Source: a phage. From it: 64,000 bases of DNA. Below the pieces are notes generated by a model, which was given only the letters and a program-made list of their open reading frames with translations, ran no database searches and was not told the origin of the DNA. The translations under genes were made by a program, and so were the position numbers. The number at the start of each line of letters is the position of its first letter. Positions within the stretch are counted from its first letter, which is position 1. Below, piece by piece: positions 50,147-61,324 of the stretch. The stretch lies in sequence record PZ386970.1; one strand, written 5' to 3'.

Positions 50147-50755
50147 TCAGTAACTGACAATAGACAGATTCCAGATTGTATAACGTCCATTTTGAATAAT
50201 AGAATCTACACGCAGTGTAGTCCCTATAGGGAGCATAAATTCACATTCGTCAGATATAAGTCTAGCATTAGACCGTCTTGTCGCTTCAGGGAAAGCTCCA
50301 TTGAACTCACAAGATGGCGCAGCCAGAATCATGTTAAGCATATGTTCACGGAAGTTGAAAGCAAATGGTGCATCTTTGATGCAGAACATATTAAATGTTC
50401 CATAAAAATTATACGAAGCAAAGTTACGTGCTACACTGAACACTGGGCTGAAGCTCATTACTCTGTCAAATTTAATAATACTACCAATGCCTTTATCATC
50501 GAGTGTGGCCATAGTTTTCTTAGAGATTCCACGATACATTGTCTCAGGAACAGAAGACGTCCAATTTCTACGAACAATTGAACTTAAATCTTGTTGGATG
50601 CTATCAGGCTTGTTTTCCATACACTGCCACAGTACACTTTGTTCAATGTCGCTGAATTGACTATCAATTTCATACTGCAATTCATCTTGATATTCAGGGT
50701 TTTGAGCACGACGAACCATTTCTTCAATTTCACACTCGTTATACGGCATAAACAT
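50147..50755 (-). CDS. modA: ADP-ribosyltransferase, ModA-like
   Basis: 202-aa ORF; paralogous to next gene; position and size as T4 ModA. Confidence 0.55.
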   Translation of the reverse strand: MFMPYNECEIEEMVRRAQNPEYQDELQYEIDSQFSDIEQSVLWQCMENKPDSIQQDLSSIVRRNWTSSVPETMYRGISKKTMATLDDKGIGSIIKFDRVMSFSPVFSVARNFASYNFYGTFNMFCIKDAPFAFNFREHMLNMILAAPSCEFNGAFPEATRRSNARLISDECEFMLPIGTTLRVDSIIQNGRYTIWNLSIVSY

Positions 50756-50812: not shown

Positions 50813-51394
50813 CTAAAAATTCAACATCTTTAAGTGAATGATTTTGTATACTCGAGACAAAGGGTCATACTCTAACTCTTCGATTTCCACAATCTCAAAT
50901 CTAGAGATGCCTGAGACCATGTACTCTTGTTCAGATTCAATCATATCTAGGACGTCAACACGCGTTTCTTCCATAACATGCTTAGGATTCTTTCCGGCAA
51001 GTACAATGTTAACCATGTTTTGGTAGTAATCAAAAATGAATGGAGCATTCCTGAGACTAAGAATAGTGTACGTCTGATATTCCCATCTCCCAGAGAATTG
51101 ACGAGCTGTACTGAAATCAGTTGTGAACGATGTTACTCGTCCAGGAGACCAATGGCATCCAACAGAAAGAAGGGAAAGACGTTCTACTTCTTCTGGAGTT
51201 ACACCACGGTAGAGTTCTACTGGTACTGTAGAAGTCATATGCTTACGAACAAGATGGTCTAATTCATAGTGGAAATCTGGGTCTTCCTTAGAATCAGTGC
51301 AAGCCCAGAGAATGTTTTGTTCTTGGCGGGTGAATTTACTATCAATCAGATTTGTTAGGTATTCGCGTTCTTGAAGTTCAGATTGACATGTCAT
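50813..51394 (-). CDS. modB: ADP-ribosyltransferase, ModB-like
   Basis: 193-aa ORF; paralog of the preceding gene (shared blocks ...ILWAC.D.K.D....L..LVR...TS.VP...YRG...). Confidence 0.55.
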   Translation of the reverse strand: MTCQSELQEREYLTNLIDSKFTRQEQNILWACTDSKEDPDFHYELDHLVRKHMTSTVPVELYRGVTPEEVERLSLLSVGCHWSPGRVTSFTTDFSTARQFSGRWEYQTYTILSLRNAPFIFDYYQNMVNIVLAGKNPKHVMEETRVDVLDMIESEQEYMVSGISRFEIVEIEELEYDPLSRVYKIIHLKMLNF

Positions 51395-55812: not shown

Positions 55813-56472
55813 TTAACCTCGATTCATAAATGCATTAAATATTTGGTCATCAACAGAAATTTCTAATTCGACTTCAATTGTTTCAGCCTTTTCTTCAGGT
55901 GGTAATTCGTATCCACACACTACAATTTTTTCATCGATATCAAAATATACAGAAGCAATACGATTAATGTTACTTTCAGTTAAGTCTAAATCAACATCAA
56001 CATCTTTTTGACCTACACTTAAAGGATAACTAATACGGGTTATTTTATTATCTTTAACAAAGAGTCCGCCAACATACTCTGTACTACGTTTGAAGTTTAC
56101 ACGTTTCCGAATTGAAAGATATGATACATCTTTACCATGAGCTCGGCTCATAGGACATAATGAATAGCTAGAATAAGAGATGTCAAATCCTACGCCTTCA
56201 ACATGTGCTAGAGTATCATGAGTAAACCAATTATAGTCGTATGCCAAATCCATTAAATTATAATATGTGAAAGGCACTGGATTAACATCGTATGTTGTAC
56301 CTTTAAAATCTGCCCAGGCGACGATTTCGTTATCTTTAACAATTACAAAAATTACACCAATATGATATCCGTTATTATTTTCATTCGGCGTTATATTATA
56401 ACATTGTGCATTAGGAAATTTACCATATTTAAATGGCGCATTTTTGTGCATATAATAAATCATATTATTCAC
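55813..56472 (-). CDS. hypothetical protein (61.2-position)
   Basis: 219-aa ORF from track. Confidence 0.5.
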   Translation of the reverse strand: MNNMIYYMHKNAPFKYGKFPNAQCYNITPNENNNGYHIGVIFVIVKDNEIVAWADFKGTTYDVNPVPFTYYNLMDLAYDYNWFTHDTLAHVEGVGFDISYSSYSLCPMSRAHGKDVSYLSIRKRVNFKRSTEYVGGLFVKDNKITRISYPLSVGQKDVDVDLDLTESNINRIASVYFDIDEKIVVCGYELPPEEKAETIEVELEISVDDQIFNAFMNRG

Positions 56473-57774: not shown

Positions 57775-57966
57775 TTAACCTCTGAAATCAGCTTCGAAAA
57801 CTTTCTCGTCATTAACAAATGCTTTAACTAATGCTTTGTTCACTTCAGCAAGTTGTACCGTAACCCACTCGATTTCTTCACGATCACCTGATAACATGAT
57901 ATCTTTAGTGAACATCTCACCGCTTTTAAACCAGCCAATAAAAGTAACTTTAGTTAATTTGCTCAT
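57775..57966 (-). CDS. dmd: Dmd antitoxin (discriminator of mRNA degradation)
   Basis: track ORF trimmed to internal ATG; ~63 aa; blocks F.GWFK...MFTK.I and AEVNKALVKAF..D.KV.E.D.RG match T4 Dmd as recalled. Confidence 0.7.
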   Translation of the reverse strand: MSKLTKVTFIGWFKSGEMFTKDIMLSGDREEIEWVTVQLAEVNKALVKAFVNDEKVFEADFRG

Positions 57967-58280
57967 ATTTCCTCGCAAAAGGCCCATTCAGCGTGATAAA
58001 CTGTAGCACCTTTAGTATCATTCATTTGAACTACGTCTACCGGAGAAATTACTCGATAGAGACGTGGTTCACCTCCATAAGAGCGTGCTGCTCGTCCTGC
58101 ATAAATCTTTGCTAAACCGATATCTTCAGTAAAGAATACACGATCCAAGTTTTTCTTACGTCCAGTTTCAGACAGAACTCCTGTTTCTTCAGGAGGACAA
58201 AGCATGTTTTCGATGTTAGCTGAACTACTTGAACCGTGATAAAAAATCTTAAATTCTGCTTTACAATCGATGGTTTTCAT
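57963..58280 (-). CDS. hypothetical protein with weak Arr-like ADP-ribosyltransferase features
   Basis: 105-aa ORF; FYHGSSS near N-terminus and later Y/E-containing blocks loosely resemble rifampin ADP-ribosyltransferase (Arr) family; own early promoter. Confidence 0.45.
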   Translation of the reverse strand: MKTIDCKAEFKIFYHGSSSSANIENMLCPPEETGVLSETGRKKNLDRVFFTEDIGLAKIYAGRAARSYGGEPRLYRVISPVDVVQMNDTKGATVYHAEWAFCEEI

Positions 58281-58306
58281 TTTGTTCTCCAGTAGTTGAT
58301 AGGTCT

Positions 58307-58336
58307 ATAGTAACATGATTTAGGAGTGTTGTAAAC
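58307..58336 (-). promoter_or_regulatory. early-type promoter adjacent to gene 41 terminator hairpin
   Basis: minus strand GTTTAC ~18 nt TACTAT; hairpin AGGAGAC-UUCG-GUCUCCU immediately upstream at ~58343-58360. Confidence 0.5.
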
Positions 58337-58365
58337 CCCGAAAGGAGACCGAAGTCTCCTTTCTA

Positions 58366-59808
58366 TTAAAATTTTAACTCATTGGCTAAGCTATCTAGGT
58401 CAGCACGTGTTGCTTTGGCTTTACCTACGCGTTCCGTACGATTCACCTCTGCCTGACGCATCTGAGCACCTGCGTTTTCATTTACTGTGTTAGGTGTGTT
58501 CATTCCTTCTTGCTCAATCTCAACCCATTTCTGATTGCCTTTACGTACACCCATCAGGAATTTATTCCACTTATTCTTATCACCATATCGTGATTTGATT
58601 TGTTTGATAAGTTGTTGTTCAGCTTGTGCAAGTTCTTCGGTTTCAATTACGGCCAACATGAAATCTGCCGTTGCTGGTAAACCTGCTGATTCTGCGATAT
58701 CACTCATGTTCATGTCTGAAGCATCCCATGCTGCACGTCCTACTTGAGCTGCAGTCCATAGAACTGTTTCAGATTCTACTGCTAATGCACGAAGTTCTTC
58801 TGCGATAGCTTTAACTAATGTGTAGCTATTTTCAGTGTAAACTCTGATACGACAAGACCCACAAATACCTAAGTAATCGACTATAATTACAGACGGCACA
58901 AAGTTCTTCTTGAGTTTTAACTCATTAAGCAATGCACGGAATGTATTAGCATTAGCTCCACCAGTAGGATACTGTTTGACTACTAAACGTCCTAATGTGG
59001 ATTTTGAACGCCATTTTTCCATTTTGGCTTTATATTCAGCATAAGATACGTTACCATCATCGATATCATCGAGTGATACGTCAAGCATGTTTGCATCTAT
59101 ACGCTTAGCACAAACTTCTTCAGCCATTTCCATGGAAATATAAAGAACATTATGGCCTGTTTGAAGATAATCTGCAGCAAGTGAACAAAGGCCTAAAGAT
59201 TTACCAACGTTAACACCGGCCATTAAAACATTCAGTGTACCGGTTTCAGCACCACCTTTAGTGATTTTATTCAAAATGTTTAATTTGAACGGGACCTTAC
59301 GTGCTTTGTTCAGATAAGAAAGCCAGCGTGCTTCGTAGTCTTCCATCCAGTCATGTCCAACATAACTATCAAACGAAATTGAAAGTGCTTGACGCATAAT
59401 ATCAGGAATAGCTCCTACGTCAGGCATTTTCTTGTTACGTTGTTCTGGAGGTAATTCAGCATTAGACTGAATCTCAATGATTTTGGATGTAGCATTATAC
59501 ATCGCTTTTTGCTGGACATATTTCTCAGTTTCTTTAACCAACCATTCGTGGTCTTCAGGAGTATCAGCCAATTTTTCAATTAGGTCTGAAGTTCCTTTAT
59601 ATTCGGCTTCAGTTAAAGAACTGTTATCTAAAGCCACCTTTAACGCATTGATAGACGGCATTGCATTATATTCGTTAACGTGGCTCTTTATAATTTTAAA
59701 GACATTTTTTGCCGGTCCACGCTCAAAATACTCAGAATCCATATAAGGCCAGACCTTAGAAAAATAAGCCTGGTCGTATACTAGATGAGACAAAATAATT
59801 TCTACCAC
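58366..59808 (-). CDS. 41: gp41 replicative DNA helicase (DnaB-like)
   Basis: 480-aa ORF; Walker A GVNVGKS, DnaB-family architecture; size as T4 gp41. Confidence 0.9.
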   Translation of the reverse strand: MVEIILSHLVYDQAYFSKVWPYMDSEYFERGPAKNVFKIIKSHVNEYNAMPSINALKVALDNSSLTEAEYKGTSDLIEKLADTPEDHEWLVKETEKYVQQKAMYNATSKIIEIQSNAELPPEQRNKKMPDVGAIPDIMRQALSISFDSYVGHDWMEDYEARWLSYLNKARKVPFKLNILNKITKGGAETGTLNVLMAGVNVGKSLGLCSLAADYLQTGHNVLYISMEMAEEVCAKRIDANMLDVSLDDIDDGNVSYAEYKAKMEKWRSKSTLGRLVVKQYPTGGANANTFRALLNELKLKKNFVPSVIIVDYLGICGSCRIRVYTENSYTLVKAIAEELRALAVESETVLWTAAQVGRAAWDASDMNMSDIAESAGLPATADFMLAVIETEELAQAEQQLIKQIKSRYGDKNKWNKFLMGVRKGNQKWVEIEQEGMNTPNTVNENAGAQMRQAEVNRTERVGKAKATRADLDSLANELKF

Positions 59809-59817
59809 GATAACTCC

Positions 59818-60186
59818 TTAAAAGAATTTAAATTTTTTCTTGGTCCGTTCATTAAAAGCTTGTTGTACTTGCATTGTAACACATTTTTCAACATGTGGTG
59901 CAAGTTCTGCTTTTCTGTCTTGGTCAAGAACTGCAAAGTCCATTACGATTTTACCATCAACCCAGTCTAGTTTTGTAATATAGACTATATGATGAGAACC
60001 ATCTTCAAGTGTAATCAGAATCTCTTGAATGACATTTTCCATTGCTGAACGGATAATTTTAAGAGATTCATTAAACACTCGTTCTTTGCGAATGTCTTCC
60101 CCTTCCGAAGAAGGGGATTCATCAACGATTTCTAGATTTAAATCATCAAGATTATTCATCGAAATCTTCCATTTCGTCAAGGTCAT
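59818..60186 (-). CDS. 40: gp40-position protein (head vertex assembly chaperone in T4)
   Basis: 122-aa ORF between uvsX and 41 as in T4 (uvsX-40-41 operon); assignment by synteny and size. Confidence 0.5.
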   Translation of the reverse strand: MTLTKWKISMNNLDDLNLEIVDESPSSEGEDIRKERVFNESLKIIRSAMENVIQEILITLEDGSHHIVYITKLDWVDGKIVMDFAVLDQDRKAELAPHVEKCVTMQVQQAFNERTKKKFKFF

Positions 60187-61324
60187 TTTCTATATCTGCT
60201 GCAGACGGAGCATCAGAAGTTTTAACCGGAACTTTAGTTGTTGCTTTGCAATTAATAAGGTCGTTAACAGCGTCATCAACTTCTTTAATAGAAGAGATAG
60301 CACCTAGTTTATATTTAGTTTCAATTGCATCTCGGAAAGGTTTGTGTTTAAACAACGGTCCCCAGAATTCTACACAATCAGTAGCTTTAGCACGCCACGA
60401 TTTCTCTTCACGAATCATTTCACCTGTTTCTTCGTCAAGGAATTCACGAGCATACCAACCAGCTTTAGGCTTAACAACAAATCCAATTTCAGTTGCCATT
60501 TCTAACAAGCCACTGAATGGGTCGATACCACCATCAAAATTAACTGTGATTGGGAAAGTAGATTTTTCTTTAACAGTACGAGATTTTTCTGCTTTCAACG
60601 TGAAGTCATAACCTGTCAATTCTGTACCTTCTTTAACCTGACGTTTAGAGATAAAGAATACAGTGTTAGCAGAGTAAAGAATACCTGTACCACCACCCAT
60701 AATCTCTTTAGGATACAATCCACCAATTTCCATTGCGGTATGGTTAATTGCAACACACGGAATATCTTTAATAGTCAGATACGGGGTCACAATACGGAAA
60801 AGAGATTTAAGTGCCTTAGCACGAGACATATCACCTACGACTTTCTCGTTCAATGCATCTTCGGTTTCTTTCTTAGATGCAGTATTACCGATTGAATCGA
60901 TAAAGATAATAACTTTATCACCGCGTTCAATTGCATCAAGCTGATTAGTCATATCAACTTTAAGTTGTTCGACGGACTGAATTGGTGTATGAACTACACG
61001 GTCTAAATCAACACCCATTGAACGGAAGTAAGATTCTGAAGCACCGAATTCCGAGTCATAAAACAAACAGATTGCATCTTTATATTTCTTCATATACGCT
61101 GCAACCATGGTCAGCCCAAACAATGTTTTAAAGTGTTTAGAAGGAGCAGCAAAAATAGTTAAGCCTGATTGCAACCCGGCATTCAGTGCACCACCTAATG
61201 CAATATTCAACATCGGAATACGAGTAGGGACTTCATCACGATTATTAAACAGCTTAGACTTAGTCAAGTCGGCAGTCATTTTAGAAGTAGAAGCTTTAAT
61301 CAGACGAGATTTTAAATCAGACAT
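60152..61324 (-). CDS. uvsX: UvsX recombinase (RecA-like)
   Basis: 390-aa ORF; N-terminus MSDLKSRLIKASTSK and long blocks (DAIERG.KV..FIDS.GN.ASKKETEDALNEKVV.DM.RAK..KSLFRIVTPY) match T4 UvsX. Confidence 0.9.
   Translation of the reverse strand: MSDLKSRLIKASTSKMTADLTKSKLFNNRDEVPTRIPMLNIALGGALNAGLQSGLTIFAAPSKHFKTLFGLTMVAAYMKKYKDAICLFYDSEFGASESYFRSMGVDLDRVVHTPIQSVEQLKVDMTNQLDAIERGDKVIIFIDSIGNTASKKETEDALNEKVVGDMSRAKALKSLFRIVTPYLTIKDIPCVAINHTAMEIGGLYPKEIMGGGTGILYSANTVFFISKRQVKEGTELTGYDFTLKAEKSRTVKEKSTFPITVNFDGGIDPFSGLLEMATEIGFVVKPKAGWYAREFLDEETGEMIREEKSWRAKATDCVEFWGPLFKHKPFRDAIETKYKLGAISSIKEVDDAVNDLINCKATTKVPVKTSDAPSAADIENDLDEMEDFDE

Follow-up and report, generated by a model that had tools for sequence, protein, structure and literature searches.

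The window, the whole 64,000-nucleotide stretch of phage DNA that we analysed (sequence record PZ386970.1), comes from a Mosigvirus, an RB69-like T-even phage, and is about 97% identical to HX01, ST0 and CAU_ECP01 in the region considered here. Between gene 41, which encodes a helicase (58366-59808, minus strand), and dmd (57775..57966, minus strand; 63 amino acids (aa); Pfam PF17587, E 8.8e-22; phrog_2102) lies a 105-aa open reading frame (ORF) on the same strand (57963..58280, minus strand; ATG at 58280-58278, TGA at 57965-57963), exactly where the original prediction, made from the sequence alone, had placed it. It is the orthologue of RB69 orf040c, a similarity also given in the annotation of the JS98 orthologue, and is assigned to PHROG 2110, of unknown function; mentions of ORF040c in PMC1524935 refer to ORFs of other phages and were set aside. 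Its TGA overlaps the ATG of dmd in the tetranucleotide ATGA (57966-57963), in agreement with the HX01 annotation. The gene encodes, in our analysis, a minimal Arr-like ('p0068-like') protein with an ADP-ribosyltransferase (ART) fold, and we hold the assignment to this fold and to an Arr-related family to be highly probable.

An AlphaFold2 model built on a 40-sequence alignment reached a predicted local distance difference test score (pLDDT) of 85.7 and a predicted template modelling score (pTM) of 0.78. Its elements follow one another as a strand, two short helices, a strand, a long helix and four strands, and they form the split beta-sheet core of the ART fold, with the cleft for nicotinamide adenine dinucleotide (NAD) between the sheets. 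The structural matches to the model were, with their figures as listed, the RNA 2'-phosphotransferase Tpt1 (9ld3; 8.3), Arr (9iaf; 7.2), AcrF11 (6.8) and diphtheria toxin (6.1), followed lower down by PARPs, pertussis-like toxins, DarT, RES/ParT and Rhs ART toxins. Among viral predicted structures (BFVD), Foldseek retrieved a 94-aa 'Rifampin ADP-ribosyl transferase' (E 4e-7, template modelling score (TM) 0.72-0.80), as well as an ART-PolyVal protein.

At the sequence level, the 105-aa protein taken alone matched nothing in Pfam (0 families at E<=10), NCBIfam, PADLOC or the PDB sequences, and a profile of its close homologues (A1) likewise found nothing among the PDB sequences. A broadened profile (A2) returned Arr-ms (2hw2) as the first PDB sequence, at E 0.0058, with Arr-2 (9iba) next. 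For 20 of the 49 members of the broadened alignment, Arr-ms was the sole Pfam family matched, and six multidomain relatives exceed the gathering score of this family on the homologous stretch (26.9-31.5 bits, for a cut-off of 25). Since the direct searches are empty and bridging homologues reach Arr-ms, the link to Arr is transitive. In the alignment, which spans Arr residues 13 to 82 of 143, H19-G-T of Arr-ms is paired with H15-G-S of this protein, E40-x-G-R43 with E38-x-G-R41, and Y49-I-T51 with F49-F-T51. The relationship to Arr is real at the level of the superfamily, the protein being an Arr-like relative and not an Arr. The likeness to Arr on which the original prediction was built is thus supported by the broadened profile, by the Arr-ms matches of its members and by the viral structure match.

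In 102 distant representatives, residues H15, G16, S/T17, E38, R41, F49, T51, A57, Y60, A61, R/K63, G69 and G70 are 96 to 100% conserved. H15 and G16 are invariant in the 40 close as well as in the 102 distant homologues, and S/T17 reaches 100%; H15-G16-S17, aligned to Arr H19-G20-T21, provides the His-Gly of the first ART strand, and lies in the FYHGS block (residues 13-17) that had first drawn attention to the protein. The second strand carries an aromatic residue followed by Ser/Thr (F49, with 97% Phe and 3% Tyr; T51, 97%), and the helix an aromatic residue, Y60 (99%), which is the Y of the second block pointed out at that time. The spacing of 11 residues between F49 and Y60 matches that of Tyr54 and Tyr65 in diphtheria toxin. 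We read the NAD-pocket signature of His-type ARTs as intact, except that Phe takes the position usually occupied by Tyr. The third block of the original prediction, around E103, does not hold family-wide: only in the T4-like subfamily does this residue never vary, and we rejected it as the catalytic Glu, as it is absent or faces a gap in about 87% of the distant homologues. E38, on the other hand, is conserved at 97% throughout the family.

The 105-aa ORF is a real gene under strong purifying selection, with a ratio of non-synonymous to synonymous substitution rates (dN/dS) of 0.09 to 0.11 in comparisons with orthologues that are close to saturation at synonymous sites. By tblastn, a homologue is found in 610 phage records at 62 to 100% identity, and the hosts of these phages include Escherichia, Klebsiella, Acinetobacter, Aeromonas, Enterobacter, Cronobacter and Vibrio. 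Searching a large protein collection returned 149 clusters, all of them close, and a profile search of 1.84 billion representatives gave 222 relatives at E<=1e-3, many of which are domains within larger proteins. On the prokaryotic side, only 6 loci were found among 185,579 species genomes, and three of the six look like phage contigs. The domain is therefore nearly confined to phages. Standalone homologues of 143-148 aa, at 48-51% identity, are encoded on two chromosomes of Patescibacteria (candidate phyla radiation; L060 4902-5348, L061 4923-5354), and the gene in L060 adjoins an ORF that looks, by eye, like a transposase or integrase; no obvious partner gene stands beside the homologue at these two loci, and the bacterial scan gave no informative operon context.

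Other phages carry the domain in fusion proteins of up to 3,900 aa, with a lambda-type portal and a 2H/Acb1-like phosphoesterase, with ART-PolyVal and NUDIX, with GNAT and Toprim, with CHAP or with DUF7178. Four such carriers, P0165 (954 aa), P0162 (1955 aa), P0180 (1046 aa) and P0155 (530 aa), display the architectures lambda-type portal + ART + 2H/Acb1-like phosphoesterase, ART-PolyVal + ART + NUDIX, GNAT + Toprim + ART, and DUF7178 + ART. From their domain composition, we take these fused forms to be effectors that the virion packages and injects along with its DNA; the T4-like phages reach the same timing by means of an early promoter. At two further loci (IMG/VR contigs L051/L052; 3509-4324), the ART domain forms the C-terminus of a 271-aa protein, and 20 nucleotides past this gene begins a 276-aa ORF that resembles, by eye, a Thg1-type tRNA-His guanylyltransferase.

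In the window, a T4-type early (sigma-70) promoter, GTTTACA-N17-TG-TACTAT, lies upstream of the gene at 58307..58336 (minus strand), with a consensus score of 9/12 and a TG before the second hexamer. Taken by itself, the promoter scan is not above chance, with 4 sites for 5.7 expected. What bears out the early promoter of its own that the gene had been credited with is that, in almost all of the T4-like lineages examined, the homologue has a GTTTAC or GTTGAC -35 box and a TAtAAT-like -10 box immediately upstream, despite differing flanking genes, and that these promoters agree with the published T4-type early consensus, GTTTAC at -36 to -31 (PMC1524935). A Shine-Dalgarno GGAG, read from the sequence, stands 6 nucleotides before the ATG (58287..58290, minus strand), and GGAGAACAAAATG, in the Shine-Dalgarno region, is likewise present in the HX01 and JS98 orthologues. 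Immediately past the stop codon of gene 41 comes a stem-loop, AAAGGAGAC-UUCG-GUCUCCUUU (58341..58362, minus strand), which together with the promoter makes up a stem-loop-plus-early-promoter cassette. The hairpin with its UUCG loop is kept after gene 41 in HX01, JS98 and three other loci (L017-L019); being without a T run, it received no call in the terminator scan.

The stretch that separates gene 41 from the ART gene (58281-58365, minus strand) is a chimera of two HX01 spacers (L001 2076-2145 and 2506-2610). Its 5' half, with the stem-loop and GTTTACA, equals the HX01 spacer between gene 41 and orf124, and its 3' half, with the -10 box, the Shine-Dalgarno sequence and the ATG, equals the spacer between orf124 and the ART gene, so that the crossover falls within the early-promoter spacer. 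A 124-aa ORF (phrog_10668, function unknown), present in most Mosigviruses, has therefore been lost by promoter-to-promoter recombination. The arrangement resembles the shuffling of 'promoter-early stem-loop' modules known in T4-type phages.

Considering these data as a whole, we find it rather probable that the protein is an early, NAD+-dependent, Arr-related effector of ART fold that serves host takeover or counter-defence. The gene leads an early transcription unit, so that its product is made within minutes of infection. The protein would bind NAD+ and transfer ADP-ribose as a mono-transferase onto a target presumably conserved across Gammaproteobacteria, with takeover of the host or counter-defence as the likely purpose, and other phages would deliver the same domain within portal-fused or polyvalent injected proteins. 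The setting is one of effectors, as the 41-61 cluster also holds Dmd, Imm, Sp and AdfA.

Several observations weigh against this proposal. Besides the empty direct searches mentioned above, Foldseek with the model as query found nothing significant in the PDB; the loop with E38-R41 is the least confident part of this model (block pLDDT 64-73); and our literature search found no biochemical or genetic work on the gene. There is also the question of the third catalytic position. Where a catalytic Glu, Asp or Gln would be looked for, at strand 5 (residues 94-97), this protein has T93, and the family has Thr in 53%, Glu in 18% and Ser in 14% of its members. Other C-terminal acidic candidates vary (position 84 is Glu in 52%, with Val here, and position 88 is Asp in 26%), and the C-terminal half of the family has no invariant acidic residue. 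In addition, Tyr49 of Arr has become Phe and QMND (85-88), opposite Asp84, is variable, so that the protein could be a non-catalytic binder. From its aligned residues, the family is best described as H-F-[T/S/E].

Catalysis is nevertheless plausible in this configuration, because other ARTs without an acidic residue can be active mono-transferases; Tpt1, for instance, has H-H-V and proceeds by attack of the substrate phosphate (PMC10415124). We therefore lean, with reserve, towards a catalytically active 105-aa protein. Given T93 at the canonical Glu position, catalysis would be substrate-assisted, with an acidic or phosphate nucleophile as for PARP10-type enzymes or Tpt1, or it would take place via the invariant E38. 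Speculatively, an acceptor that bears a phosphate (the end of an RNA or DNA, or a nucleotide) would fit better than a protein side chain, being hinted at by the basic cluster R41-K42-K43 with R63, by the missing catalytic Glu and by the 2H and NUDIX fusion partners. The precise version of this proposal, an active ART with an unusual H-F-T triad whose acceptor is a phosphate or hydroxyl on a nucleic acid or nucleotide, for example the ends of RNA or a nucleotide that acts as an immune signal when infection starts, is tentative, and we would rate its chances as low.

Four other explanations are considered. The first is that the ART fold is catalytically dead and serves binding only, as a sponge or decoy for NAD+, ADP-ribose or a derived immune signal, or as an inhibitor of a host NAD-utilising defence enzyme. 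Such a role would account for the lack of a conserved acidic residue at the third catalytic position and for the replacement of the Arr Tyr49 by Phe with no conserved Asp84, while the invariance of the pocket residues would mean that ligand binding is under selection. However, ARTs of the H-Y-hydrophobic or H-H-hydrophobic type are active mono-transferases, as is the case for H-H-V in Tpt1 (PMC10415124), and 18% of the family do keep Glu at position 93. Moreover, E38 and R41 are invariant although they lie beyond the classical pocket, and in polyvalent proteins the domain sits among enzymes (NUDIX, 2H, GNAT, a second ART). We therefore consider a dead fold rather unlikely.

The second explanation concerns dmd, to which the original prediction had tied the gene functionally. 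Iyer et al. 2022 (PMC9503650) described a 'p0068-like' ART beside Dmd in phages of Escherichia, Shigella and Salmonella, and proposed a toxin-antitoxin pair, that is, a phage type II system in which the ART is toxic, perhaps by modifying RNA, and Dmd neutralises it in addition to the host toxins RnlA/LsoA. The 105-aa gene is very probably a member of this family, as matched by the description given in that paper: its ART gene stands directly beside dmd, and the family is among the most frequent viral ARTs, which fits the 610 phage records. The ART gene and dmd adjoin each other, with translational coupling through ATGA, in the window as well as in Mosigvirus and Dhakavirus relatives, exactly the arrangement predicted for the phages of the three host genera; according to the same paper, some Klebsiella phages have a Mod-like ART beside Dmd.

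We surveyed this pairing at 55 loci (49 from IMG/VR, 5 GenBank records and the window), and found Dmd within 4 kilobases of the ART gene at 14 of them, all close relatives with ARTs at least 88% identical. Elsewhere the genes downstream vary with the lineage, and include a 55-60 aa membrane protein, a 41-46 aa Cys-rich acidic protein, proteins of 79-124 aa and a Thg1-like gene. In phages of the Slopekvirus/Karamvirus type (L003 2815-2991), the 55-60 aa predicted membrane protein overlaps or abuts the ART stop codon, and at L017-L019 the 41-46 aa Cys-rich, very acidic peptide (MEEFECVVCGC...) comes directly after the ART gene. In T4, conversely, dmd directly follows gene 41, without an ART gene between them. 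Dmd is found in 801 records, 564 of which are less than 60% identical to the Dmd of the window, a band that covers every Tequatrovirus-type match listed. About 350 of the 610 ART records belong to identity bands in which no Dmd neighbour was seen.

The adjacency at 14 of 55 loci, the absence of the ART gene from T4 and the different record counts and identity bands lead us to conclude that ART and dmd are distributed largely independently. The two genes are not kept together as a toxin-antitoxin pair would be, and four-base overlaps are usual among the packed early genes of T4. Adjacency to dmd was accordingly dropped as functional evidence after the survey, the functional tie being unsupported by the distribution of the genes. 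The published ART-toxin/Dmd-antitoxin idea is weakened, and the distribution does not favour an obligate pair; as an explanation of this gene we think it unlikely. That the two genes lie side by side here seems to be a feature of the variable 41-61 cluster, in which imm, sp and AdfA are also found.

A third possibility is an RNA-end enzyme of the Tpt1/KptA type, which would place ADP-ribose onto the terminal or 2'-phosphate of RNA cut by host RNase toxins, and so repair or protect it alongside Dmd. The conserved basic cluster R41-K42-K43 with R63 would suit such a substrate, the fusion partners 2H phosphoesterase and NUDIX both process ADP-ribose products, and RNA enzymes occur nearby in some genomes, with RNA ligase 2 a few genes off in a Slopekvirus and the Thg1-like gene adjoining in L051/L052. 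Tpt1/KptA enzymes, however, consist of two lobes, the N-terminal one being a winged-helix lobe for RNA, and carry an H-H-V motif (PMC10415124). The 105-aa protein has neither: 75 of its residues align to the NAD lobe, the second motif position is Phe in 97% of the family and never His, and the closest sequence relationship of the family is with Arr, not with Tpt1. We regard this explanation as quite unlikely.

The comparison with Arr itself (PF12120; 2hw2, 9iaf, 9iba) bears on the last explanation. Arr is a protein of about 143 aa whose C-terminal part helps form the rifampin cleft; the 105-aa protein has no counterpart past Arr residues ~85-90. Arr belongs to a resistance cassette, whereas the gene studied here is a phage-borne early gene. 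Activity of Arr needs His19, Tyr49 and Asp84, according to a passage in PMC13246000 citing Baysarowich 2008; H15 keeps the His, but Phe stands for Tyr49 and Asp84 is not conserved, and the protein has neither the Pfam gathering score nor the full domain of ~140 aa. That the gene would be a true Arr, a resistance enzyme that ADP-ribosylates rifamycin-like antibiotics and so shields the host RNA polymerase needed by the phage, is very improbable: by sequence no family is closer than Arr, and the homologue bears the name 'rifampin ADP-ribosyl transferase' in some GenBank records, but only Arr residues 13-82 of 143 are aligned with the C-terminal third missing, two residues required for Arr activity are not kept, the protein scores nothing against Pfam Arr-ms, and Iyer et al. 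place the true Arr homologues in actinobacterial phages, separate from the T4-like family (PMC9503650).

Two other groups of phage proteins may be compared with our preferred candidate, the early ART-fold effector. With the anti-CRISPR AcrF11 (6kyf), no sequence relationship was detected in the searches made. AcrF11 is narrowly distributed, in contrast to the 105-aa family, which is conserved across T4-like phages of many hosts; this breadth argues for a conserved target rather than for a single defence system. T4 Alt, ModA and ModB are likewise phage ARTs that act right after infection, but they measure about 200 aa or more, and their clade has Arg-Ser-Glu motifs, in place of the His-type motif of the smaller 105-aa protein. 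The window itself contains two tandem genes for Mod-type RNA polymerase ADP-ribosylases (50147-50755 and 50813-51394, minus strand; phrog_832, E ~1e-39), neither product of which matches any Pfam model. The 105-aa protein bears no similarity to the Mod-type protein of the window (phrog_832) in a BLASTP comparison (E 22).

As for the wider neighbourhood, the order of genes on the minus strand is uvsX (60152-61324), gene 40, gene 41, the 105-aa ORF, dmd, a 61.4-like DUF7279 gene, a DUF5481 gene, imm, sp and AdfA (gp61.2). The product of the latter (219 aa; 55813-56472, minus strand; PF23813, E 2e-118) is a homologue of anti-DarT factor A, T4 gp61.2, and its gene lies 1.5 kilobases downstream, in the cluster that the 105-aa gene shares with Dmd, Imm and Spackle. 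AdfA counters a host DNA ADP-ribosyltransferase, and is thus encoded near a phage gene of ART fold. Some names given to genes of this region in the HX01 RefSeq record (NC_018855; L001 933-1574) are doubtful, such as a 70-aa 'DNA polymerase' and a 122-aa DUF5481 'iduronate sulfatase'. Since these neighbour names are unreliable, the 'ADP-ribosyl transferase' label in the same record is not independent evidence.

The fold assignment was already known, from Iyer et al. 2022 and from several GenBank and RefSeq labels reading 'ADP-ribosyl transferase' or 'rifampin ADP-ribosyl transferase'. What the present analysis adds is that the link to Arr was tested by structure and by transitive sequence searches, that the triad is read as H-F-T, with the Tyr, the Asp and the C-terminal part of Arr lost, and that distribution data speak against ART and Dmd as an obligate pair.

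T4-type phages are the classical model of viral ADP-ribosylation, with Alt, ModA and ModB; this 105-aa gene would add a fourth enzyme, from a different, Arr-related clade and about as small as an ART can get. The practical value of the finding is modest until activity is demonstrated. Outside T4 itself, the gene ranks with the best conserved of the small early genes, at 62 to 100% identity from Escherichia phages to those of Aeromonas, Acinetobacter and Vibrio, and since the domain is also found in portal-fused or polyvalent injected proteins, its acceptor would probably explain a general tactic used by many phages in the first minutes of infection. Should this acceptor be a nucleic acid or a nucleotide, the T-even-type phages would have in this protein a fourth, mechanistically distinct ADP-ribosylation activity, and more than 600 sequenced phages would share a widespread enzyme of counter-defence or RNA protection.
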